Below, piece after piece: positions 1,097 to 27,377 of a stretch of 64,000 bases of DNA. The notes beneath the pieces were generated by a model that was not told the origin of the DNA, searched no databases, and saw only the letters and a program-made list of their open reading frames with translations. Origin of the DNA: Naegleria gruberi (lineage: Eukaryota); NCBI GenBank assembly GCA_000004985.1, contig GG738862.1; one strand, 5' to 3'. The position numbers were made by a program, and so were the translations under genes. Within the stretch, counting starts at the first letter, position 1, and each line of letters starts with the position of its first letter.

Positions 1097-3838
1097 NNNN
1101 NNNNNNNNNNNNNNNNNNNNNNNNNNNNNNNNNNNNNNNNNNNNNNNNNNNNNNNNNNNNNNNNNNNNNNNNNNNNNNNNNNNNNNNNNNNNNNNNNNNN
1201 NNNNNNNNNNNNNNNNNNNNNNNNNNNNNNNNNNNNNNNNNNNNNNNNNNNNNNNNNNNNNNNNNNNNNNNNNNNNNNNNNNNNNNNNNNNNNNNNNNNN
1301 NNNNNNNNNNNNNNNNNNNNNNNNNNNNNNNNNNNNNNNNNNNNNNNNNNNNNNNNNNNNNNNNNNNNNNNNNNNNNNNNNNNNNNNNNNNNNNNNNNNN
1401 NNNNNNNNNNNNNNNNNNNNNNNNNNNNNNNNNNNNNNNNNNNNNNNNNNNNNNNNNNNNNNNNNNNNNNNNNNNNNNNNNNNNNNNNNNNNNNNNNNNN
1501 NNNNNNNNNNNNNNNNNNNNNNNNNNNNNNNNNNNNNNNNNNNNNNNNNNNNNNNNNNNNNNNNNNNNNNNNNNNNNNNNNNNNNNNNNNNNNNNNNNNN
1601 NNNNNNNNNNNNNNNNNNNNNNNNNNNNNNNNNNNNNNNNNNNNNNNNNNNNNNNNNNNNNNNNNNNNNNNNNNNNNNNNNNNNNNNNNNNNNNNNNNNN
1701 NNNNNNNNNNNNNNNNNNNNNNNNNNNNNNNNNNNNNNNNNNNNNNNNNNNNNNNNNNNNNNNNNNNNNNNNNNNNNNNNNNNNNNNNNNNNNNNNNNNN
1801 NNNNNNNNNNNNNNNNNNNNNNNNNNNNNNNNNNNNNNNNNNNNNNNNNNNNNNNNNNNNNNNNNNNNNNNNNNNNNNNNNNNNNNNNNNNNNNNNNNNN
1901 NNNNNNNNNNNNNNNNNNNNNNNNNNNNNNNNNNNNNNNNNNNNNNNNNNNNNNNNNNNNNNNNNNNNNNNNNNNNNNNNNNNNNNNNNNNNNNNNNNNN
2001 NNNNNNNNNNNNNNNNNNNNNNNNNNNNNNNNNNNNNNNNNNNNNNNNNNNNNNNNNNNNNNNNNNNNNNNNNNNNNNNNNNNNNNNNNNNNNNNNNNNN
2101 NNNNNNNNNNNNNNNNNNNNNNNNNNNNNNNNNNNNNNNNNNNNNNNNNNNNNNNNNNNNNNNNNNNNNNNNNNNNNNNNNNNNNNNNNNNNNNNNNNNN
2201 NNNNNNNNNNNNNNNNNNNNNNNNNNNNNNNNNNNNNNNNNNNNNNNNNNNNNNNNNNNNNNNNNNNNNNNNNNNNNNNNNNNNNNNNNNNNNNNNNNNN
2301 NNNNNNNNNNNNNNNNNNNNNNNNNNNNNNNNNNNNNNNNNNNNNNNNNNNNNNNNNNNNNNNNNNNNNNNNNNNNNNNNNNNNNNNNNNNNNNNNNNNN
2401 NNNNNNNNNNNNNNNNNNNNNNNNNNNNNNNNNNNNNNNNNNNNNNNNNNNNNNNNNNNNNNNNNNNNNNNNNNNNNNNNNNNNNNNNNNNNNNNNNNNN
2501 NNNNNNNNNNNNNNNNNNNNNNNNNNNNNNNNNNNNNNNNNNNNNNNNNNNNNNNNNNNNNNNNNNNNNNNNNNNNNNNNNNNNNNNNNNNNNNNNNNNN
2601 NNNNNNNNNNNNNNNNNNNNNNNNNNNNNNNNNNNNNNNNNNNNNNNNNNNNNNNNNNNNNNNNNNNNNNNNNNNNNNNNNNNNNNNNNNNNNNNNNNNN
2701 NNNNNNNNNNNNNNNNNNNNNNNNNNNNNNNNNNNNNNNNNNNNNNNNNNNNNNNNNNNNNNNNNNNNNNNNNNNNNNNNNNNNNNNNNNNNNNNNNNNN
2801 NNNNNNNNNNNNNNNNNNNNNNNNNNNNNNNNNNNNNNNNNNNNNNNNNNNNNNNNNNNNNNNNNNNNNNNNNNNNNNNNNNNNNNNNNNNNNNNNNNNN
2901 NNNNNNNNNNNNNNNNNNNNNNNNNNNNNNNNNNNNNNNNNNNNNNNNNNNNNNNNNNNNNNNNNNNNNNNNNNNNNNNNNNNNNNNNNNNNNNNNNNNN
3001 NNNNNNNNNNNNNNNNNNNNNNNNNNNNNNNNNNNNNNNNNNNNNNNNNNNNNNNNNNNNNNNNNNNNNNNNNNNNNNNNNNNNNNNNNNNNNNNNNNNN
3101 NNNNNNNNNNNNNNNNNNNNNNNNNNNNNNNNNNNNNNNNNNNNNNNNNNNNNNNNNNNNNNNNNNNNNNNNNNNNNNNNNNNNNNNNNNNNNNNNNNNN
3201 NNNNNNNNNNNNNNNNNNNNNNNNNNNNNNNNNNNNNNNNNNNNNNNNNNNNNNNNNNNNNNNNNNNNNNNNNNNNNNNNNNNNNNNNNNNNNNNNNNNN
3301 NNNNNNNNNNNNNNNNNNNNNNNNNNNNNNNNNNNNNNNNNNNNNNNNNNNNNNNNNNNNNNNNNNNNNNNNNNNNNNNNNNNNNNNNNNNNNNNNNNNN
3401 NNNNNNNNNNNNNNNNNNNNNNNNNNNNNNNNNNNNNNNNNNNNNNNNNNNNNNNNNNNNNNNNNNNNNNNNNNNNNNNNNNNNNNNNNNNNNNNNNNNN
3501 NNNNNNNNNNNNNNNNNNNNNNNNNNNNNNNNNNNNNNNNNNNNNNNNNNNNNNNNNNNNNNNNNNNNNNNNNNNNNNNNNNNNNNNNNNNNNNNNNNNN
3601 NNNNNNNNNNNNNNNNNNNNNNNNNNNNNNNNNNNNNNNNNNNNNNNNNNNNNNNNNNNNNNNNNNNNNNNNNNNNNNNNNNNNNNNNNNNNNNNNNNNN
3701 NNNNNNNNNNNNNNNNNNNNNNNNNNNNNNNNNNNNNNNNNNNNNNNNNNNNNNNNNNNNNNNNNNNNNNNNNNNNNNNNNNNNNNNNNNNNNNNNNNNN
3801 NNNNNNNNNNNNNNNNNNNNNNNNNNNNNNNNNNNNNN
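1097..3838. other. Assembly gap (2742 N).
   Basis: Run of n characters. The 1012/976/935-aa ORFs spanning it are poly-X artefacts. Confidence 0.99.
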
Positions 3839-3895
3839 CGTTAATGGAAAACGGGAATATGTGATTGTTCCAGAGCATGTCGATTCATCTTTGAT

Positions 3896-4240
3896 TTGAT
3901 AGATAAGGACAAAGCTTTTCCAGAGTTCATCAATGCCATTATCCAATGTGAAAAGGTATTAACTGACCTCACAAAAAGGTTTGCTCATCTATTTTCAGGG
4001 CTTGCATTCAACACTACCGTAAATGGTATAACTTATTCAATTCCTCCAGACATTATCAAAATGCTTATTGGTAATGTGACTCAAAAACAGTGCTTGGAAT
4101 TGTTAGCACATCATCACTTCAAGAAACCTATAGGAGAACTCACAACTGATCAAAGAACAGTATGTAGAAAGTTCTTTGAAGCAAGGGGATGGGATAAAGA
4201 AAGTGTTCGGAAGGCAATCAATAGTTTGATCAAAGAATAA
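3896..4240 (+). CDS. ORF in the right arm of the TIR element (114 aa). Possibly the C-terminal remnant of the element-encoded protein; function unknown.
   Basis: Open frame MIDKDKAFPEFINAIIQCEKVLTDL...FFEARGWDKESVRKAINSLIKE lies just inside the right TIR and subterminal repeats. The upstream part is lost in the gap. No motif recognised. Confidence 0.25.
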   Translation: MIDKDKAFPEFINAIIQCEKVLTDLTKRFAHLFSGLAFNTTVNGITYSIPPDIIKMLIGNVTQKQCLELLAHHHFKKPIGELTTDQRTVCRKFFEARGWDKESVRKAINSLIKE

Positions 4241-8927: not shown

Positions 8928-8977
8928 NNNNNNNNNNNNNNNNNNNNNNNNNNNNNNNNNNNNNNNNNNNNNNNNNN
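8928..8977. other. Assembly gap (50 N).
   Basis: Run of n characters. Confidence 0.99.
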
Positions 8978-10247: not shown

Positions 10248-10297
10248 NNNNNNNNNNNNNNNNNNNNNNNNNNNNNNNNNNNNNNNNNNNNNNNNNN
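10248..10297. other. Assembly gap (50 N).
   Basis: Run of n characters. Confidence 0.99.
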
Positions 10298-10571: not shown

Positions 10572-13500
10572 GATAACGTAAATGGTTTATATAAGCACGC
10601 AAGCCATAAATCAGTTACTCCTGAATTGAAATCCATGTGTTTAACACATGGAATTCACTTTATGAGTTTAACTGAAACTCACTTAAATACCCCAGAACTA
10701 GAAATAGAAGTCAAAAACTCTGGATCAGGGTACCTATTATTTAACTCATTAATGAATACAAGAAAAGGTTGCAAAGGTACTGCAGCTATGCACTTTCTAA
10801 ATAATTATAGAAAGCGCAATATTACAAATAATAATCTCGTACCTGGAACATTACAATGGACACGATTCGAAAGTCGTGGAATTCCAATTAACATCTTCAC
10901 AATTTATCTTAGTGGAAGATCTAATGATTATGACAATGAGGAAGAAGCTCTTAATAGCTTTATTAATGCTGCCCTCACAATTAAAGATGAACATATTATT
11001 TTAAGTGGTGATATTAATATTGATACAAGAAATCCCACTAGTAAAAGAGAAAAAGACTGGCTATGGATACTTAATCTACTCAGACTAACCGAATTACAAA
11101 CATCCAATAATACTTGGATAAGAAGAGTTCAATCTAATATTTTTGAATCGAAACCTGATCATGTCTTTGTGTCAAAAGACATAAGAATAGTTAAAGAAGT
11201 GCTCATGCCTCCATTAACCACTAATGATCACATTCCTTTCTATATAGATCTCGAATTTAAATCTAACTTAACCTAGAGACCTTACTTTAGTAAGAGTAAG
11301 AGAAAGAAAATATATGAAGAAATTAATAAGTCTCCTATAGATAATTTCAAAGAGTTAAATCAAGCTATCTTGACTCAAATTAACAAATATGGCTCCAAAA
11401 CTGATAGATTAGGTGTTGGTCGAATCTCAACAGCCTATAAAGAAGAAATTCAAGATTTGGAAGAAGAAATTCTTCACAAATTAAATAATGAAACTATTTC
11501 TCAATCAGAAATATCTGAATTACAAACATTACTGAAAGAAACTCATATTAAAAATGGAAAACATATTAAGGAAAAATTGATAGAAGAATTCAATGATAGA
11601 ACTTCATCTAAAATGTATCAATTTGATAGAATGGTTCATTCCAAAGAAATTAAATGGAAAGATATTAATTTCGAAGAAGAGGAAATTTTAGAATACTTTA
11701 CAAATAAGTTTACCTCGACTAATCAACTTCCAACATTCATTCCAAGTAGATCAACTATTAAAGAAGGACCAAATTGGACCAACTCGATCCATATAGAAGA
11801 ATTGGAAAAAGCTTTAAAACGTATGAAATCAAATACCCCTGGTCCTGATCTAATTTCTCTGGATATTATTAAGCATCTCACAGAAAAAAATCAGAAAATT
11901 TTATTGAACGAATTTAATAATTGCCTAAGAATAGGTGATATCTCTGAAGATTGGAAGCAAGGATGGGTGAAACTCATTCCTAAAAGAGATATCACTTCTC
12001 TCAGTGACATTCGTCCAATCACTATTTTACCTACATTTTATAGAATTTTATTTAATATTATAGCCTTTCGACTTAGATCTTGGGCATCATCTCATATAAA
12101 TATGAGACAACAAGCATTTATTACAGACAGAAACACTTTAAATCATGGTGTCCTTCTATCATCATTAGCTATGAAAACTAAGAAAAGAACCTTCATTCTT
12201 GTTAACCTAGATATTGAAGGAGCTTATGATGCTGTAGAATTGTCAGTGATTAAAATGGCACTAGACCATTGTAAATTTCCTAACGAACTCACTCAATTTA
12301 TTATTAATGCCTATAGCAACCATGAATTGAGCCTAGAAATTGATAATCATCTATCCACAAAATTTACAAAAACTCGAGGAATCCCACAAGGATGCCCATT
12401 GGCTCCTCTTATATACGATTGTATCACACAATTAATTATTGATAAAGCAATAGATAAATGGAAAATACCAATCAAACCAAACAAACTATGTGCTAATGAT
12501 ATTGCACTCTGTTGCTTTGCAGATGATATGAATGTTGTCTGTGACAGATATGCCAAATACAATGACAGGCTAGATAACATACATGACTGGCTAGGTCAAC
12601 TACTTTTTAAACTAAATGCAAAGAAATCAGTTGCAACTCTACTACCTAAAACAAGCAAAGTATCTCCCAAAATTAAGGGTACACCTATTCCTAAACAAAA
12701 AAACCTTAGGATACTTGGACATTATCCATGGGATGATATTCTGGTTCGACAAGATATCCAAAACAAAATTGAAAAATTTACCAAATCTTTGAAATTTCTC
12801 CCATTATTCAAAATTGAACCAGATAACCTTAAACAAATTATTCACGCTAAAGCTATTAGCTTATTTACACACCTTTCTAAAATTAACTTAATTCCTCTGA
12901 AAAAGGCACAACAAATTGATATAGCCATTAGAGGAGCAATTAGAAGAAAACTATATATGGACAGGAAAACACCAACCAGCTTATTCCACTTACCATTAGA
13001 AAAAGGTGGATTAGGACTACCATCTATTGTAGAATTTTCTGAAAGAATGAACCTAAGAACCATGACCTTAATTGCTAACAGTAACAATTTACTCGTCAAG
13101 AAAGCTTTCAAACATGGTATCAAGCACTGTGAGGAAACGAAAGACAATATTTATTCGAAATGGCTACTAGTACTAAAAGAATACAACCTCACACTTAAGA
13201 AAAATGAAATGAAATTCAAGTTGAAAAAAATCAAAACAGGAAATAATTTTGATATTCACACTGACGGATCAAGACTCGAATCAAAGACTGGAATGGGGAT
13301 TAATATCTATGATTGCTCCAATATGAACACTCCAGTTAGATCTTTATCCCTCCATATTAATGATCAATATTCAAATAATGTAGCTGAAATATGCTCTATT
13401 ATTACAGCAGCTAAAGTTATCCCAAGAGACTCCAAGATTAAAATCCATACTGATAGTAATGTGGCAATTTAAGTTCTCAAAGAACGATATAAGGGAAACT

Positions 13501-14222
13501 TTCTACCACTAAAAAAAGCCTTCTTTAAAACCATTAAGGATAGAAAACTTGAATATGAATTCAAGAAAGTTGAAGCTCATAAGGATAAGGAAAATATCAA
13601 AGTTGATTTATTGGCAAAGAATGCAACTCTGAAACCTAAAATCTTTGATATCCGTAAACTACTCTTTAATCAATATATCCTCACAAAGAACGATATTATA
13701 ATCTTTGACTATAAGAGGTTAACTACCTCACAACATTTAAGGCTAATGCTTGACAAGATAGAGAGTCACCCCAATCACATACCTAACCTAGATTGGAACT
13801 CTATCAACGTCAGCTACCTTAAATCCCATTTGTCTCCTAAATCTAAATATTATATTTGGAGAAACTCTTCAAATGCCCACATCAATTTTGGTGAGGGTAA
13901 AAGTTTCTGTCATGATTGTAACACAGAATCTGACCTTAATCACTATATTCATGAATGCCCTGCTCTGGATAGTGCCAGATACTTTTGCTTGTCAAAAATA
14001 TCTGATATTCTTGATCAGAGAGAGTGTAAACTCACTCATATTCAATTCAGACCAGAAAAGCATCACCATGTACTCTTCTTCCACCATTCTGGAACCACAT
14101 TCTTCGAAGATGGATACGTACAACAATACCCAGACATTGCAGAGAAATGGCCTGAGATCCAGGGAGCCATTTCTAACTTTGTCGGCCGCTCCTATAGATA
14201 TTATTATATTGACTCAATGTAA
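10572..14222 (+). pseudogene. LINE ORF2 of about 1200 codons in a single reading frame, interrupted by only two in-frame stops (TAG 11274-11276, TAA 13470-13472). It contains an APE-type endonuclease (10572-11276), reverse transcriptase (11370 to about 13150), RNase H (about 13200-13620) and a C-terminal CX2C...HX4C motif.
   Basis: EN: DNVNGLYK...LTETHL...SGDINID...TNDH. RT: FRLRSWASSHINMRQQAFITDRNTLNHG...IALCCFADDMNVVCD (YXDD/FADD box). RNH: IHTDGSRLE...DSKIKIHTDSNVAI / VLKERYKGNF...EAHKDKENIKVDLLAKNA. C-terminus: CHDCNTESDLNHYIHECPALD. ORFs 10626, 11370 and 13611 all start at positions that are 0 mod 3. Confidence 0.7.
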
Positions 14223-15009: not shown

Positions 15010-18000
15010 TTACTTAGTTTTAATACCGGCATTATCTTGGTGGAACATTGGCAAGACACTAGGTCTGTCCTTTCTACCTCTTCTTCTCACCATCAAAGTG
15101 AGAGAAAGACAGCAGAATCCACAAACAGCAAGCAAGAGGGCAACAATAACAAACACCCAGAATGGAACCTTTTCTCTTGGTGGTTTAGGAACTTGAGCAG
15201 CAGGAATCTTCCTGGTTTCGATTGGTTTTTCTTCCTTCTTTTCCTCAATAATATTAATCTTTTTATCTTCTTCTTCGGCAGTTCTAATTTCTTCTTCAGC
15301 AGTTTCCTCAACAGTTTCGTCATCTTCCAATCCCAAATCATTAATTTCCTTATTGTTGGTATCTTCATCAACAGTGTCCTTTTTAGAGATTGGAACAAAA
15401 CCTTTTCCACTAAAAGTCATTGCAGCAAAGTAAGATTTGATAGATGTTGCAGGAAGGGTAATGGTGTATGGTGAAATACCACCAATGGCCAATAATTTTC
15501 TACCACCAGCATTCTTTTCCATTTCAGCAATAGCTTCATCAGAAAGGAAGACCCCTTCTTGATCGGTGTTTTGGCCTCCTTCGCCTTTGAGTTTAACTTC
15601 TTTAGTAAAATCAAATCTCATTACTGCATCCTTCTTGAATCTCAACTTTCTCTTTTCCTCACTGACTTCATAAATGAGATTGAGAGAACGTTCTCTAAGA
15701 TCAGAAACTTCAATACCCTCAGAGAAGAGAGTACTAAAATCAATTGTTAATGGCTTAGATGGATGTAAATTTTGTAATCTAATAGCAACTTCATCAGAAG
15801 AAATACCTCTAGCCTGCAAGGAGATGATTTGAGCTGTGGATGGGAACTTTTTGTTGAAAATATTAAATTGTCCAATAACTTTACCTCTAACAGCATAGCT
15901 TTGAGGTTGTCTATTAACGAGGAGGGACTTTTGGTGGAGTTTGACAAAATCATCATTGGTTGTTCTGGCAAGGTAGGAAACTGCAAGTCTAAACTTGAGA
16001 GAAGATTGGTCATTGTTTGCTTCTGACATTCCTCTATAGTCATCCTTCATGAGTCTTCTGTGGACAAGGAATTCCAATTCTCTGCCGTTAGCTGTTGTGG
16101 CCATGGCGTGATCTGTGAGGACAGAAATTTGAGAGTCAGGGAATTTCAAGAGAGCTCCATTTGTTGATGGATAGAATTTACCAGGTTTTGGAGCAGCTTC
16201 ATGAATAGTTCTCTTAACAAAGTTGAATCCATCATAGACGATCATGGAACCAGCTGAGGCATCCTTTGTGGCAACGCCAAATCTTACAACTGTTTCAGAA
16301 TTCTCTGGAAGAGGATTAATTTCCAATCTATAATCAATATATTGTTCCAAATTTTCATCTTCCAATTCATGTGGAAGAGTGACAGTCATGACAACACGAT
16401 CAGTATTGATAATAGCCTTATCAACAACTGGTCCACGTGAGATGTAGACATATTCGAGATTTTGAGATCCGAGAGGACTTGGACCATCATCGTTTGGTCT
16501 GAAAAGGTAGCTACCACTGTTTTGTGTCTTGTATTCTAAGAATTGATTTACGGTTTCGTGAACCTTACCATCCTTCTTACTGGTGACTTTCTTGACATAA
16601 CCAGTACTCTTGTCAATAGTTAAGGCATAATGAGCATTTTCAAGTAGAATTTCCTTTGCTGAAGAAATGTCACGAACTTGAATCTTCTTTGAGGTGAATT
16701 GTTCATAATGTTGACTCATTCGCTTAACATAGAGGATATTTGTGTCGAGCAAATCTCCTTCAGAATGCTCTTCACACTTGAAAGAGTAGCTGTTAAAAGC
16801 CAATCCATCAACACTAGCTACAAACTGAATGTTGTAAGGTAATGGAATTTCGGTCTTTTCTCTTCCAACATTTGGAATGACTTGATATTCGACGTTTTTC
16901 TTGGCAGAGTCCAAAATAGTTGCCAAAGAACACTTGCTATTCACAGTAACTATTTGTTTGATATTGTGGGACAAGCTGTTGTAAACAATGATAGAATGTT
17001 GATCATCATTGGTAACATCCAAACTATCTGATAAGACACTATTACTATCAATTTCCAAAACGTGTTGAGTGAGTGATTTGTGAAGGGACTTCATATCTTG
17101 AATGACTGAAGCAAGTTGGGACATGTAATCATTATAAACATGTCTTCTACAAGTACCAGTAATGGCATCGTGGTGTTGTACCAACCCAACAGTTTGTCTA
17201 GATCTTTGAATAGTATTAAATGTGTCTACCCAGTTGAACATGCTATTTTGGTGAGTCATCTTTACTCTTGCAAGAGCATACAACATTTCAGTTGATGTGA
17301 GCGCTGATTCAGCAGTTCTGGCAGACTTTTTAAGGTTTGGTAAGGAGGTAAAGTAACCAGTCCAATAACTATCTGGGTAGTCAGCATATGGTACAAAGTC
17401 TTGTTTAACGACTGGGAACTTGGTACTGCTACCGTAGTTTTTGAATAATTCATTAAAGTATTCAGTAGTGGTGGCATATTGAACCTTAACTCCTAGATCA
17501 TGATTATCCAAAAACTGAATAACTCTATCCATATTTGAAAATTGGGCTCCGGCATCTCTGAATTTAAAGTCGTCGCCCATTGGAACAAGAATGTATGGTG
17601 TTCTGTATGCTGAAGATCTCTTCCTCATGTCTTCAATAAATTCGTGAGCTTTTCTTTCCACATTTTGATCATTGATAAATTCCGCACCTGGTTTTTCAAA
17701 ATCAAAATTTCTAGGACTGGAATAGTGAGTATGAAGTACTTCAGTGAAGATGGTATTGTTTGAGCTGATGTTCCAAATAAATTCCAATGCCTTTTCGTCC
17801 TTCATTACAGATTTGATGGAAAAGTGAACTCTGTTAATTACGAGAGCATCAAATCCCATTTGGCTGAATATTTGTGGAATTTTTCCGTCATGACCCTTAA
17901 TTCATCATATATTAATCTTTCCTCGAGATGTGAAAACTTACAAAAGGATCAATTTGCCAAGCAACTCTCGGTCTCACTCCAAATCTTCTCAAAAGATATT

Positions 18001-18976: not shown

Positions 18977-20252
18977 ATGCTCAACACAACTACATCATCC
19001 GAACAAACGTCCGATGCTCACAATGATTCAGACTTTTCCTATGTTGGAAAGAATTTAAATACCACCTCATCCTCTCATCATCATGAAATAAAGAAGGAGA
19101 GAATTGTTCCAGAAAACAAGTTGAAAGGATATGAATTTTGGAAATCTATTGGTTCACCAAAACATGTTGTTGCACCAATGGTAGACCAAAGCGAATTGGG
19201 TAAGTTGTTGTAGCATTGACGATAATTTACTAAATAGGTGAATAGCATTCCGATTGTTAGCTCAAAATCATGGATCCACACTTGCTTATACTCCAATGTT
19301 CCACGGAAGAATTTTCGTTCAAGATGAAACATATCAAAAGACACATTTCCAATTCTTGGAAAGTGAAGGACCAGTTTTTGCTCAATTTTGTGCCAATGAT
19401 CCTAACATTTTTGTAGAATGTGGTTGGTTAGCTTGGGAATTGAGTAACCAAAAAATTGCAGCAGTTGACTTGAATTTGGGATGTCCACAAAGAATTGCCA
19501 AGAAGGGAAGATATGGATCTTATTTGATGGAAGATATTGATTTAATTTGTTCAATGATTGAAAAAGCACACAAGGAATTACCAGTTCCTGTCACTGCTAA
19601 GATTAGAATTTTTGAAGATGCAGAACATACCTTAAAATATGTGGATAGAATTCTTGAAGCTGGAGCTCAAGTATTGTGTGTTCATGGAAGGACGAGAGAC
19701 CAAAGAGGACACAATCAAAACTATGCCGATTGGAAAATGATTAAACTTATTAGAGAACACGTACCACACATTCCAGTAATTGCTAATGGTAATATTAGAA
19801 TGTATCAAGATGTTATTGATTGTTTGGAATTTACAGGAGCTGATGCTGTCATGTCAGCAGATCCACTTTTGTGCAATCCAGCACTTTTTAATGGAGGTCA
19901 ACATGTCAATGGAATTGATTTGTGTGAGGAATATATTAACATTTGCGAGAAATATCCACCACCAGATCATAGTTTTATCAAGAGACACTTGTTCCAAATG
20001 TTGGACCATACCTTAGGTACACATAATCACCTCCGGGCAACCCTTGCAAAAGCCAGTGGTATTCAAAAATACAGAGAATTTGTTAATCATCTTAAAGAAA
20101 ATAAGGAAACCTTAGTAGTTGATCCACCAGTTTATGAACCATCAATTATGGTTGTCAAGGATCCAAAGAATCATCCAATAGATAAAAAACCAAAAGGAAG
20201 AGGTTGCAAGCCATGTGATGACGAAGTTGTTCCTGGAATAAATGATAACTAG
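18977..20252 (+). CDS. tRNA-dihydrouridine synthase (Dus1-like), 2 exons: join(18977..19199, 19246..20252). Intron is 46 nt.
   Basis: ...KHVVAPMVDQSEL|A FRLLAQNHGSTLAYTPMFHGRIFVQDETYQ...FAQFCANDP...NLGCPQRIAKKGRYGSYLM... matches Dus family motifs. The intron runs gtaagttgttg...ggtgaatag with a GTAAGT donor at 19200, and the phase-1 junction reconstitutes QSELA as in animal DUS1L. Confidence 0.8.
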
Positions 20253-20513: not shown

Positions 20514-21621
20514 ATGAAATCCCATTGTTTATTCCTAGCTCTGCTTTCCTTCTCATTGAGCGTACTTCTCGTTCAATGCCAAGAAATGGGCACTGTGCCT
20601 GTCACTCAAGAATTTACAGATGCCATCGATTCTGGAATGCAAGATGTCATTACTGACACTTCCTTTAGTTTTCAATACTACAAACTCATGCTGTTCAACG
20701 TTCCTGCCATTGAAATTTGCACCACACGAGCTAAATACCCAACTAAGAATCCATTTATTGGAAGAACTCAACTCAACATGTGCATTGAATTGGGAACTAT
20801 TTATCCACATTATGAAGGTAAGTTGATTTTCTAGTTGAGTGGTGGAATTTAATTGGGAAATAGTCAAGCATTTGGTATCCAAAATGTTGGTTGATAAGAT
20901 TAATGCCAATTACAAGATTAATTTAAAGGTGGAATATAGATATTTGAATACTTCCAAATTGGGATTTTTTGCAACAATGAGACAAGGTGTTGATTCTGGA
21001 TATTGTGATATGATTTCATCGAATACTACACCAACTGATGAGAGAAAGAAAGTGTCTCATTTCCAATGTAGTTATGGAACTACAGCTCAAGGTAAGAAAT
21101 TGATATATTTCTAATGAAAATAACTTTCGTAAATTTTTCTAATGATGTGAATACGAAATTATACATGAAAAATAGGATTCTTGAGATCAGGATTGGAACC
21201 TGAACGTAAATTGTCTTCTTTAAATGATTTGAATCAAACTGGAATTATTGTAGGAGCTTATGCAGGAACAACATACGAAACTTTGGTAAAAACTAAACTC
21301 TCTGCAGCCACCTACGTTCCTTTCTATGAAGTAAATAATCAATATCAGTCGATTAATGCCAAATCTGTTCATGCCTTAATTGGAGATGGTATGTTTTTTC
21401 AATAATTTTTTAATGATTTTTGACATTTGAAAGCTGTTCAATACCTAATTTGGCAAGCAGCAAACAATGCCACCTGTGGAGGATGCTCAGTAAAGATCTA
21501 CAGCGAACCATACACTTACGGAACTTTTACAACAGGAAACATTACAAAAAGTTCAGCAAGTTCAATTCAATTTTTATTACAAAATATTCTTCTCATTTCT
21601 TTACTTATTCTTTACTTTTAA
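20514..21621 (+). CDS. Secreted protein with a bacterial-type solute-binding (SBP_bac_3 / PBPb-like) fold. It has a signal peptide and a C-terminal hydrophobic, GPI-like tail. 4 exons: join(20514..20817, 20864..21091, 21176..21388, 21434..21621). Introns are 46, 84 and 45 nt.
   Basis: Signal peptide MKSHCLFLALLSFSLSVLLVQCQ. Lobe motifs INLKVEYRY...FFATMRQGVDSGYCDMISSNTTPTDERKKVSHFQCSY, LSSLNDLNQTGIIVGAYAGTTYETLVK...YVPFYEVNNQYQSINAKSVHALIGD, and AVQYLIWQAANN... All donors are GTAAGT, GTAAGA or GTATGT and every junction is phase 1. Confidence 0.65.
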
Positions 21622-24440: not shown

Positions 24441-27377
24441 TTACATTCTATTCATTTCTTGAAAAATTGAAAATTCACAAATGAAAGAATGGTCAACTTG
24501 CAATGAAGGTGAGGCAAATTGCAGAGCCATTTCATTTTGTTTGACAGCTACTTGTACAAACTCTTTTGTAGATCTCAATGTAGGACTGCAATATTCCAGT
24601 GCAAGGCCATTATATTTGACAAACTCTATCATGACTTGCTCATTATCTTTGTAATGATCTGGTAATAAATCTAAATACTTGATTTCATTTGTGATTTTTA
24701 CAGATTCCAATAGAAATTCAGAGTGATTTCGTAAATAGTTCTGTGAAACAAATGGCAATAATCCTTTCACATCAAGCTTGAGAATATTTTCATCGGTGAA
24801 TGCTTGTGAAGCCAAATTATTGTAATTTCTGTATCCGCATTGGATGGCTATTTTGATAATTTCCTTTTCATACTGAAGATGTGATGGTATCAAATTGAAT
24901 AGTTTAGGATAATTAGAAAGCAATAATTGTATCATTTCAATTGATTCCTTGAGATTTTCATCCAAATGTCTGAAATTATTTGGATCCTTCAAGATGGCAC
25001 GTTTCATAAGTTCAGCATCTGACCTCTTCTCTTTTGGAAATTGAGAAACATTGACTCCCTTATCAATACATGTAGCTAGAAATTCATCTTGACATTTTAA
25101 ATCATTACAAGCAATCTGAAAGAAATCTTGTCCATACTCTACAGCAGATTCAATAAAATCCCTATCTTCAGAAAACAGTTCAATAAGGAATGGCATTGGA
25201 ATCTTGTATCTATCCACTGAGAGAATAGAAAGAAGAATCTTACGTATGGTTCCTTTTTGCTGATCATCCAAATATCTTTCTTTTAGTTGTTGTAAAGCTT
25301 CTTCGTCTAGAGAAGTGCTACCAGATAGAATGTCAACAACTTCCTCAATCATAACCATGTCTACCAGAACAGTTTCGAAAAATTCACGTAAAATAGCTTT
25401 GGACTTTCTCTTTTCGAAAGGAAGTTTAAAGAATAAATCTCTATCAAGAGAAAGTGCCTGACTGGCTAATTCATCATAGAATGGTAGAGAAGGATCAAAC
25501 CATGCTGTTTGTTCAATGATAGAGGGGTTGTTAGTGATAACATCAATAAGGAACTGAGAGTTTGTTTTTAAATCTTTGTGAATTTGTCCAAAGTTTCTGT
25601 ACGGGTTGAGGGTTACTGATTTGAGAGCTAGATCTCTATTTCCCTTTAGTCTTGCACTCGCATAGCTAAACAGTTCGGGATCTTTCTCAATAATTTCATT
25701 CATAATTTCCAAATCATCTCTTATTGATGGTGGAGCGAATTCAATGACTTGCAGATTATTTTGAAGAGCAATCTTGAAAAATTCCAAATCATTCATATAA
25801 TCTCTCAGATACTGTAGACAAGCTCCATTAACTGATACAAACTTCAATAAGTATTCTCTGTTCCACTTCATTTCCTCTGGTATGAATATGATTGTTTCTT
25901 CATTGTACTTGACAAGATTTAAATAAAAATCCAAATCTCGATGTCTATTCTCACCTCTTGAGAATCTATTCCTAATTTCAGGTTTTATCCATCCCAAATT
26001 TTGTTTGACCACTTGTTCTAATTTAGGATCTTGATTCAATTCTTCTGAAATGGTTGTAATTGCCCAAACGTTTTGACGTAAAGCTTGGAGTACAACTTCT
26101 GTATCTTTTCTATATTCAGGATACACATACTGAATGGCTATTCCATTTCTCTTTAAGACTTCCAATACAAAATGCTTATGTTGATAGGGAGATAGTTCCA
26201 TACAGAAAGGATGAATGCTGGCAGCTTCCAAATGTTTGTGCCACAATGTTGAATTGTTTGGATTTTTAAATGCTTGTGTGTAGGCTTGTGAAATGGCAGC
26301 CATTTTGTGCATGAAACTAACTCTTTCTTTTCTATTTGGATTTTTCAATGTTTCAACAATCTTTCGAATAAAATCAGTAGGAGTATTTCCAACAAGCTGC
26401 TCAATAGTTACACCCAACGAATACAAATCTGTATCAATACCGTATGGAAGTGGTAAATTCTTCCTTTCCTCAGGTTTAATTTTCTTCAAATTCTCAATAT
26501 ATTCAAATATAATTGGATCCATATAACTAAGAGTACCTCCATCGTTCACCTCTTTGATTGATTTTTGACTAAATGATAATCCAAAATCTCCAACAACCAC
26601 CTGAATACTTTCCAAATCAAAATCAATACTTCTGACCAATAAATTTCCTGGCTTGATATCTCTATGACAAATATTCTTTTTGGAAATATATGAAAGTGCA
26701 TCACAAACCTGAGCTACAATTTGAATAAGCATTGAATCAGTGAGCTTTCGTTTATAGCTAACCAGAGATCCCTTCTCCATAAATTCCATTTCAAGACAAA
26801 CCATTCCCTCAATAATGTGAAAATCATCAACTTTTACAATATGTTCATGATCTAATTGAATTGAATTTGCCAATTCCTGAAATCCAATAACAGTAGAGGA
26901 ATTTGTAATACATTTAATGGCCTTCCTATTCTCACCAATCAACACTGTAAAAACAGATCCAAATCCTCCTGAACCAACACAATCGTCCACTTTCAATCCT
27001 TTCGAATAGAAATATTCTTTCAACCTTCTCTCCGTTGTATTTTCATTTAACATTTTCTTCAATTGTTCCTCACGATTATTAAATTTATCATTTTCATTCT
27101 TCATTGTGGTTTGTTCTCCATCCCGATCATCATTAATATTCATATTAATATTATTTAAATTATTTAAATTATTTAAATTATTATTATTGGGTAAAACATC
27201 AACTAAATTCAAAGCCTTCTTTTTCTTAAGTTGTCGAAAGGAAATTGTTTTTTGATTAGTTTCATCATCATCACGCATGACTTGAACAGTTTCATCATCA
27301 CTAAAATCATCGGAAGAGTCTAATAAAATTTTGATAGATTCTTCTCTCTTCCTTTTGTGTGCTGCGTCATTGAGCAT
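24441..27377 (-). CDS. Ser/Thr protein kinase (N-terminal) fused to a long array of about 30-aa DUF4116-like repeats (978 aa).
   Basis: Kinase motifs GSGGFGSV, AIKCI, HRDIKPGNLL, DFGLS, and an APE-like segment. C-terminal repeats have the consensus YNGLALEYCSPTLRSTKEFVQVAVKQNEMALQFASPSLQ, that is (A/G)LxFASxxLRxDxE(F/I)VLxAVxxNGxAL. Confidence 0.75.
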   Translation of the reverse strand: MLNDAAHKRKREESIKILLDSSDDFSDDETVQVMRDDDETNQKTISFRQLKKKKALNLVDVLPNNNNLNNLNNLNNINMNINDDRDGEQTTMKNENDKFNNREEQLKKMLNENTTERRLKEYFYSKGLKVDDCVGSGGFGSVFTVLIGENRKAIKCITNSSTVIGFQELANSIQLDHEHIVKVDDFHIIEGMVCLEMEFMEKGSLVSYKRKLTDSMLIQIVAQVCDALSYISKKNICHRDIKPGNLLVRSIDFDLESIQVVVGDFGLSFSQKSIKEVNDGGTLSYMDPIIFEYIENLKKIKPEERKNLPLPYGIDTDLYSLGVTIEQLVGNTPTDFIRKIVETLKNPNRKERVSFMHKMAAISQAYTQAFKNPNNSTLWHKHLEAASIHPFCMELSPYQHKHFVLEVLKRNGIAIQYVYPEYRKDTEVVLQALRQNVWAITTISEELNQDPKLEQVVKQNLGWIKPEIRNRFSRGENRHRDLDFYLNLVKYNEETIIFIPEEMKWNREYLLKFVSVNGACLQYLRDYMNDLEFFKIALQNNLQVIEFAPPSIRDDLEIMNEIIEKDPELFSYASARLKGNRDLALKSVTLNPYRNFGQIHKDLKTNSQFLIDVITNNPSIIEQTAWFDPSLPFYDELASQALSLDRDLFFKLPFEKRKSKAILREFFETVLVDMVMIEEVVDILSGSTSLDEEALQQLKERYLDDQQKGTIRKILLSILSVDRYKIPMPFLIELFSEDRDFIESAVEYGQDFFQIACNDLKCQDEFLATCIDKGVNVSQFPKEKRSDAELMKRAILKDPNNFRHLDENLKESIEMIQLLLSNYPKLFNLIPSHLQYEKEIIKIAIQCGYRNYNNLASQAFTDENILKLDVKGLLPFVSQNYLRNHSEFLLESVKITNEIKYLDLLPDHYKDNEQVMIEFVKYNGLALEYCSPTLRSTKEFVQVAVKQNEMALQFASPSLQVDHSFICEFSIFQEMNRM

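Follow-up and report, generated by a model that had tools for sequence, protein, structure and literature searches.

NAEGRDRAFT_66319 is a four-exon gene of Naegleria gruberi located at positions 20514-21621 (+) of a 64,000-nucleotide stretch of contig GG738862.1 (assembly GCA_000004985.1), hereafter called the window. Its 310-residue product, as given by a splice model rebuilt from the sequence, belongs to an uncharacterised heterolobosean family, best described as circularly permuted, probably glycosylphosphatidylinositol (GPI)-anchored amino-acid flytrap proteins derived from bacterial solute-binding proteins (SBPs) of the SBP_bac_3 type. With moderate confidence we take NAEGRDRAFT_66319 to encode a permuted, probably GPI-anchored Venus-flytrap binding protein of the cell surface, likely a sensor. 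The initial annotation of this gene, made from its sequence alone, had described a secreted protein with a binding-protein fold and a GPI-like tail; the circular permutation of the fold was not noticed there and is new in the present analysis. The permutation and a set of kinase-fused relatives are the surprising parts of the results.

The ectodomain, of about 265 residues, is homologous to class-II (SBP_bac_3, cluster F) amino-acid binding proteins. When the spliced protein was compared by phmmer with all sequences of the PDB, the best match was to the tandem binding domains of GlnPQ (2.1e-8), and AncCDT-1 was matched at 2e-6; the NCBIfam model TIGR01096 matched at 2.2e-7. A profile made from 35 family members matched AncCDT-1 with E = 7.6e-26 and altogether 202 PDB sequences at E <= 0.01, with amino-acid binding proteins on top. 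Two Pfam profiles had been proposed as a check in the initial annotation, and the outcome was divided: SBP_bac_3 (PF00497) matched the spliced protein with E = 2.1e-4, its 21.5 bits staying below the gathering score of 26.4 bits, and neither Lig_chan-Glu_bd nor Lig_chan gave any match to it. Less-derived members of the family exceeded the SBP_bac_3 gathering score (P0056, 64.5 bits; P0087, 62.8; P0142, 54.5; P0102, 49.5). The homology of the Naegleria family to the bacterial class-II proteins is solid, and the nearest known relatives of the NAEGRDRAFT_66319 protein are binding proteins of bacterial ATP-binding cassette (ABC) transporters, not the ligand-binding domains of ionotropic glutamate receptors (iGluRs). 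For the structure, an AlphaFold2 model was built from 37 family sequences for the N. lovaniensis homologue P0003 (54% identical to the N. gruberi protein), giving a predicted local distance difference test score (pLDDT) of 90.9 and a predicted template modelling score of 0.80; an earlier model from four sequences was unusable (pLDDT 44). The best Foldseek matches of the P0003 model were amino-acid SBPs with bound ligand, and the class-II flytrap fold, two alpha/beta lobes with a two-strand hinge, was recognized. The SBP_bac_3-type fold proposed in the initial annotation is thus a secure assignment.

The order of the chain is not the canonical one, in which beta-strand 1 comes first and the helix hairpin last. 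In all full-length members, the signal peptide is separated from beta-strand 1 by 40-60 residues, which in the P0003 model form two helices with pLDDT of about 98 (model residues 31-80). At the other end, all members stop directly behind YGTFTT, the last strand of lobe 1, at a point where canonical SBPs go on into a two-helix hairpin. From the N-terminal extension a profile of 37 positions was made and compared with all of the PDB. Among the 31 sequences found at E <= 10, 28 were SBP_bac_3 proteins, and in all 28 the match fell in the C-terminal helix hairpin, that is, in the last 30 or so residues of the chain or, in the tandem structure 6h30, of the first substrate-binding domain (SBD1). Examples are GlnPQ SBD1 (221-249 of 251; E = 0.002, the best), LAO (205-235 of 238) and HisJ (203-233 of 238). 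The extension was then moved to the C-terminus in three members, upon which the alignments reached the ends of the models and full-length collinearity was regained: P0087 rose from 63.5 to 79.3 bits with TIGR01096 and from 54.4 to 68.1 with GlnH, P0056 from 60.9 to 75.8 and from 46.2 to 59.6, and P0102 from 38.5 to 43.1 and from 27.6 to 39.1, respectively. In bacterial GlnPQ-like proteins with multiple SBDs, the family profile gave single hidden Markov model (HMM) alignments running from the hairpin of one domain through the linker into the next domain; such junction-crossing alignments were found in P0110 (HMM positions 28-271 and 29-256), P0118 (30-257) and P0122 (24-174). The extensions of Naegleria type and those of the canonical-like eukaryotic members were linked by hhalign with a probability of 94.6% (E = 7e-8, score 31), while shuffled controls scored 7.2 +/- 1.7, none of 100 reaching the score, and the reversed control 7.4. 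At the family level, the N-terminal segment resembles the canonical C-terminal one, the C-terminal segment is absent, and re-ordering restores collinearity. These sequence comparisons altogether identify the family as a circular permutant of the canonical fold, in which the former C-terminal helix hairpin would now stand at the N-terminus and be joined to beta-strand 1 by a linker with a cysteine, C69, kept in 73 of 74 sequences.

Two proteins outside the locus are of interest with respect to hairpin-first units and tandem arrays. P0111, a bacterial SBD-SBD-permease protein, carries at residues 24-70 an SBP C-terminal-like helix hairpin, FNSFLGEQIKTGSLDKILNTWI, between a lipoprotein-like leader and the first binding domain, so that bacteria may already possess units that begin with the hairpin. 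P0009 (NAEGRDRAFT_68554), a predicted protein of 462 residues from another N. gruberi locus, contains two tandem family units (HMM positions 85-264 and 34-309); the N-terminal hairpin is missing from the first and partly present in the second. If this tandem is genuine, it is relevant to the way in which permutants arise; otherwise, the gene caller has merged two adjacent genes.

The ligand clamp was examined by an alignment of the family HMM with Escherichia coli GlnBP, whose numbering agrees with the published contact residues. The motifs TPTDERKK, GAYAGTTYE and ALIGD, already pointed out in the initial annotation, are present and align to GlnBP T70-R75, G117-T118 and D157, respectively, TDERKK being identical to GlnBP residues 72-77. 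R162, the counterpart of R75 that holds the alpha-carboxylate, is conserved in 90 of 91 family sequences, and T157, the counterpart of T70 in the lobe-1 clamp, is Thr in 33 of 93 (plus Asn and Ser). On lobe 2, G208 (GlnBP G117) is kept in 74 of 91 sequences, T209 (T118) is Thr or Ser in 87 of 91, and D248 (D157), facing the alpha-ammonium, is Asp in 71 of 89 and Glu in seven. The alpha-amino-acid clamp, consisting of Arg and Thr/Ser of lobe 1 and of the G-T backbone and Asp of lobe 2, is conserved. Positions that confer side-chain specificity are changed, K115 of GlnBP to Y206 and H156 to G247. The predicted ligand is a free L-amino acid or a close analogue, gripped through its alpha-carboxylate and alpha-ammonium, and the side-chain specificity probably differs from that of glutamine or arginine binders. 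Since both the fold and the clamp are kept, the protein most likely works as an amino-acid binding protein. An enzyme derived from the same fold, for instance a cyclohexadienyl/arogenate dehydratase, was also considered, because AncCDT-1, AncCDT-3/5 and other cyclohexadienyl dehydratase entries rank high in both sequence and structure matches. This alternative is very improbable and was set aside: the binding-protein clamp is intact, the extant dehydratases score below the binding proteins with the family profile (3kbr, 1.1e-10, against 5eyf, 1.2e-19), and the PDB title of the AncCDT-1 entry reads ancestral amino-acid-binding protein. We take AncCDT-1 to be a reconstructed binding protein and not an enzyme, and reconstructed, consensus-like sequences tend to score well.

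Both ends of the protein point to the secretory pathway. The N-terminus contains a 16-residue hydrophobic core (hydropathy 2.67 for residues 6-20) and homologues likewise begin with hydrophobic leaders, in agreement with the signal peptide of the initial annotation, and a cleavable N-terminal signal peptide is predicted. The protein ends with GNITKSSASSIQFLLQNILLISLLILYF, a hydrophobic tail as also noticed before, the last 15 residues having a mean hydropathy of 2.25 with nothing after them. The leader and this tail are the only hydrophobic segments; the ectodomain between them is continuous, and there are no cytosolic residues. The layout of the tail, GNITKSSASSIQ followed by FLLQNILLISLLILYF, matches the rule for GPI signals, with a short spacer. 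The same GPI-signal-like layout, a stretch rich in Ser, Gly, Ala and Asn followed by a terminal hydrophobic run and at most one charge thereafter, is found in 58 of the 71 members whose sequence extends to the last strand, and six have instead a transmembrane (TM) helix with a cytosolic extension. By this rule the tail is probably a GPI-attachment signal, and the mature protein would be lipid-anchored. Six cysteines are conserved in the family (C69, C90, C149, C170, C263 and C266), and N-glycosylation sequons are found at N130 in 42 of 92 members and at N197, within the stretch aligned to DLDGK of GlnBP, in 45 of 86. Judged from this pattern of cysteines, the family proteins are best described as disulfide-bonded; cysteines, sequons and termini together fit passage through the secretory pathway and a predicted GPI anchor. 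In the literature on GPI anchors in Naegleria nothing usable was found, including biochemical anchor data for Naegleria homologues.

Several observations, in addition to the SBP_bac_3 score below the gathering level, weigh against this reading. The structure model is that of the homologue P0003 and not of the N. gruberi protein itself, and the placing of the N-terminal helices at the canonical hairpin site on lobe 1 is suggested by pLDDT and secondary structure. When the N-extension profile was made from the Naegleria/Willaertia-type sequences alone, no SBP was found in the PDB, only insignificant matches to adenovirus hexon; hhalign of the Naegleria-type extension against 47 bacterial hairpins gave a score of 15.8, which none of 150 column shuffles reached, with the reversed control at 13.6; and un-permuting the N. 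gruberi protein gained just 1.2 bits. Since the direct signal to bacterial hairpins is weak, the permutation of the Naegleria subfamily rests on the transitive hhalign link described above. The C-terminal tail may be a short TM anchor in place of a GPI signal. In a literature search for the NAEGRDRAFT locus tags, for Naegleria together with solute-binding, and for the family, nothing was found; on periplasmic binding proteins of eukaryotes that are naturally circularly permuted the literature likewise gave nothing relevant. Finally, the first lobe-1 hairpin, a source of side-chain contacts in canonical SBPs, is shorter in the Naegleria subfamily, and the pocket may therefore be remodelled. The shortened hairpin and the variable side-chain positions such as Y206 and G247 would also suit a surface coat or adhesion scaffold with a vestigial cleft, in which the expansion of the family serves diversity of the surface and not of ligands, as would the large, fast-diverging paralogous family with GPI-like tails and the precedent of PfVFT1, likewise a stand-alone eukaryotic flytrap, which is studied as a surface antigen and has no known ligand. 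We regard such a scaffold as unlikely, because the carboxylate Arg (90 of 91), the G-T pair and the Asp are strongly kept across sequences of about 20-50% identity, which is hard to explain without ligand binding.

The distribution of the family was determined with a profile of four Naegleria sequences, which found 281 of 1.84 billion representative proteins at E <= 1e-3 and 100 at E <= 1e-10; a word-indexed homologue search with the family alignment yielded just 10 proteins. Among the named members, N. gruberi contributes three loci (the tandem-unit model included), N. lovaniensis at least six, of which two adjoin each other, and N. fowleri at least three; Willaertia magna is also represented. 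Many more lie on environmental contigs, including one intron-less gene on a contig of 37% GC with eukaryote-like neighbours. The initial annotation had described a stand-alone secreted version of the fold with introns, which holds, and had considered it uncommon. The protein does not stand alone: the family is large and present in multiple copies in Naegleria and Willaertia. In some relatives the domain is fused to other modules. P0142 of Cavostelium apophysatum contains the whole permuted SBP unit (HMM positions 4-292), followed by a TM helix and a Tyr/Ser-Thr kinase; P0136 of Nematostelium gracile, a 5'-truncated transcript, has the SBP core, a TM helix and a kinase; and in P0099 the domain is joined to NIDO and EGF repeats. 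Upstream of the adjacent family genes C9374_008685 and C9374_008686 of N. lovaniensis, at a distance of 1-4 kb, are a TnpB/Fanzor-like gene of 359 residues with OrfB_IS605 and Cas12f1-like TNB domains (PYSW02000035.1, L002, 1391-2470, -) and a DDE_Tnp_4 transposase gene.

A receptor role is favoured because these two variosean amoebae fuse the permuted ectodomain, through a single TM helix, to a kinase of TKL type. In the mechanism that we propose, the mature protein would be tethered to the outer leaflet through lobe 1, with lobe 2 able to close freely; the clamp residues that are kept (R162, T157/T159, G208-T209-T210 and D248) would grip the alpha-carboxylate and alpha-ammonium of an amino acid; and closure of the domain would be read by a membrane partner, leading to sensing or capture. 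As its most likely origin, we propose that the permuted unit was cut out of register from a bacterial GlnPQ-type array of tandem binding domains. A wider scenario, put forward as a tentative conjecture, is that a eukaryote captured such an out-of-register slice and that this natural permutant gave rise both to the GPI-anchored binders of heteroloboseans, including the pathogen N. fowleri, and to the single-pass receptor kinases of varioseans, all serving as amino-acid chemosensors for cues from prey or host. The ideas of an ancient transfer and of a receptor or nutrient sensor, raised in the initial annotation, appear plausible in the light of the conserved clamp and the kinase-fused relatives. 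Nutrient capture, by contrast, would have the tethered binder concentrate amino acids and either pass them to a transporter or be internalised with its cargo, as bacterial SBPs feed ABC importers. It would draw on the same conserved clamp, on the closest relatives being transporter SBPs and GlnPQ-type SBD-permease fusions, and on a multi-copy family that could span several substrates. We consider it a possible but rather unlikely role: the fused effectors in the family are kinases only, neither a fused nor an adjacent permease or ABC partner is present, and no SBP-dependent importer turned up as a eukaryotic partner; to our knowledge none is known. A permease domain was found neither in the protein nor in the neighbouring genes of the window, a partner not having been searched genome-wide.

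The gene structure given in the initial annotation stands. The four exons join in frame, and the introns of 46, 84 and 45 nt are all of phase 1, beginning with GTAAG or GTATG and ending with AG (Table 1). Unspliced read-through would meet a stop at most 17 nt past exon 1 (EGKLIF*) and past exon 3 (GDGMFFQ*). The spliced product is 47-54% identical over its full length to C9374_008686 and C9374_008190 of N. lovaniensis and FDP41_004449 of N. fowleri, with no gaps at the three junctions, and the one intron of N. lovaniensis paralogues, at TSQ|AF, lies within 1 nt of intron 2. Conservation among homologues thus supports the predicted four-exon structure. The best database match of the product was a "predicted protein [Naegleria gruberi]" with 99% identity, which is NAEGRDRAFT_66319 itself (XP_002678263.1, UniProt D2VBS7). 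This deposited model (P0001) starts at Met25 and has its 3' end inside intron 3, and a second one on another scaffold, NAEGRDRAFT_76003 (XP_002669082.1, P0160), also starts at Met25 and splices past exon 4 to GTDLQICANLES at about 21683. Both are without the signal peptide and exon 4, and the four-exon model is better than either. The two models, on different scaffolds, are 100% identical across residues 25-248, suggesting that the assembly contains a duplicate or an allelic scaffold or that the gene was duplicated very recently. No synteny was found between the N. gruberi locus and the two N. lovaniensis loci examined, so that these genes are not necessarily one-to-one orthologues.

Table 1. 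Positions in the window of the parts of NAEGRDRAFT_66319 and of its neighbouring genes
Feature	Position	Strand	Description	Basis or remark
Exon 1	20514-20817	+	Codons 1-101 and 1 nt: signal peptide, N-terminal two-helix extension, Cys linker, lobe-1 beta-strand 1	Splice model; ungapped homologue alignment over the junction
Signal peptide	20514-20582	+	Residues 1 to about 23, MKSH + CLFLALLSFSLSVLLV + QCQ	n-h-c layout
N-terminal extension	20601-20693	+	Residues about 30-60, EFTDAIDSGMQDVITDTSFSFQYYKL	Counterpart of the canonical C-terminal helix hairpin
Linker	20694-20765	+	Residues 61-84, FNVPAIEICTTRAKYPTKNPFIGR; family-conserved C69 and YP	Corresponds to the inter-domain linker of tandem SBDs
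Intron 1	20818-20863	+	46 nt, GTAAGT..AG, phase 1	Read-through stop at 20832-20834
Exon 2	20864-21091	+	Rest of codon 102 to first nt of codon 178: remaining lobe 1, GYCD, TTPTDERKK carboxylate-binding motif, R162 (21043-21045)	
Intron 2	21092-21175	+	84 nt, GTAAGA..AG, phase 1	Position matches (within 1 nt) the sole intron of three N. lovaniensis paralogues
Exon 3	21176-21388	+	Codons 178-248 and 1 nt: hinge, lobe 2; LNQT sequon, GTT (21265-21273), D248 (21385-21387)	
Intron 3	21389-21433	+	45 nt, GTATGT..AG, phase 1	Deposited model runs into it (..GDGMFFQ*)
Exon 4	21434-21621	+	Lobe-2 end, CxxC (C263/C266, 21475-21486), last lobe-1 strand YGTFTT (21517-21534), GPI-signal-like tail, stop TAA (21619-21621)	
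GPI-attachment-like signal	21544-21618	+	KSSASS small-residue cluster (candidate omega site), short spacer, terminal hydrophobic FLLQNILLISLLILYF	Rule-based
Dus gene	19254-20252	+		Neighbour
GH38 mannosidase gene	15010-17859	-		Neighbour
Kinase/DUF4116 protein gene	24441-27377	-	978-residue open reading frame: protein kinase domain and five DUF4116 repeats	Neighbour

The genes flanking NAEGRDRAFT_66319 are ordinary eukaryotic genes, and the window is AT-rich eukaryotic DNA with a GC content of about 33%, the gene itself having 33%. An artefact, either bacterial contamination, a pseudogene or a chance chain of open reading frames (ORFs), might be suspected from the weak Pfam score and from the disagreement of the deposited models at both ends. 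It is effectively refuted by the three canonical short introns of consistent phase, the eukaryotic neighbours with matching GC content, the full-length homologues conserved in three other heterolobosean genomes, the intron position common with N. lovaniensis and the identical second copy in the N. gruberi assembly. Elsewhere in the window, runs of N (assembly gaps) lie at 1097-3838, 8928-8977 and 10248-10297, and the first of them, of 2742 bases, accounts for the near-zero GC at 2001-4000. A remnant of a non-long-terminal-repeat (non-LTR) retrotransposon was located at 11370-14222 (+), comprising a 700-residue ORF with reverse transcriptase and RNase H and then a 203-residue ORF without Pfam match; a tblastn match of the binding protein at 13680-13877 (E = 0.025) falls inside this second ORF and was discarded as chance.

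With this family, a natural circular permutant is added to one of the best-studied ligand-binding folds, and a route to it is plausible since tandem domain arrays are already present in bacteria. The eukaryotic use of SBP_bac_3 proteins extends beyond glutamate-receptor channels to a probably lipid-tethered form in Naegleria and Willaertia and to kinase fusions in two amoebozoans. The several genes of the pathogen N. fowleri, whose products are probably located on the cell surface, are candidates for sensing of nutrients or host cues or as antigens. In the annotation of NAEGRDRAFT_66319, its terminal features have been hidden because both deposited N. gruberi models are without the signal peptide and the last exon.

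In comparison with the bacterial polar amino-acid binding proteins (GlnBP, HisJ/LAO, ArtJ, ArgBP and AncQR/AncCDT-1), the Naegleria family differs in its permuted chain order, in six conserved cysteines and N-glycan sequons and, in the Naegleria subfamily, in the shortened first hairpin of lobe 1; the N. gruberi gene has in addition a eukaryotic signal peptide, spliceosomal introns and a GPI-like tail. A cognate ABC permease or ATPase, as accompanies bacterial SBPs, is found neither in the N. gruberi protein nor in its neighbouring genes. The protein thus departs from the canonical type in chain order and transporter partner and keeps the fold and the clamp. The ligand-binding domain of iGluRs (S1S2; also bacterial GluR0 and plant GLRs), the best-known eukaryotic use of the flytrap fold, has the same fold and the same agonist clamp of Arg/Thr/Asp type, but its S1 and S2 are split by the pore-forming Lig_chan, whereas the N. 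gruberi ectodomain is uninterrupted. PfVFT1 of Plasmodium falciparum (PF3D7_0606800, PDB 5jkq) resembles the N. gruberi protein as a eukaryotic, stand-alone, membrane-associated flytrap with a signal peptide. The same module serves as extracellular sensor in SBP_bac_3 receptor and sensor kinases, including bacterial BvgS/EvgS, Ser/Thr kinases of StpK7 type and the Cavostelium and Nematostelium proteins, of which P0142 carries the permuted unit with its N-terminal hairpin; the N. gruberi protein differs in having no TM or cytosolic signalling part and would need a separate partner. The tandem SBDs of GlnPQ (Lactococcus lactis SBD1-SBD2, PDB 6h30) are similar in several respects: they gave the best single-sequence PDB match, their SBD1 hairpin, located just upstream of SBD2, is matched by the N-extension profile, the family profile is collinear over their junctions, and they too are membrane-tethered binders. 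In GlnPQ, however, each hairpin belongs to the preceding domain, whereas the N. gruberi protein is a single unit with the hairpin first, none at the end and no permease. The N. gruberi protein may descend directly from a donor with tandem SBDs.

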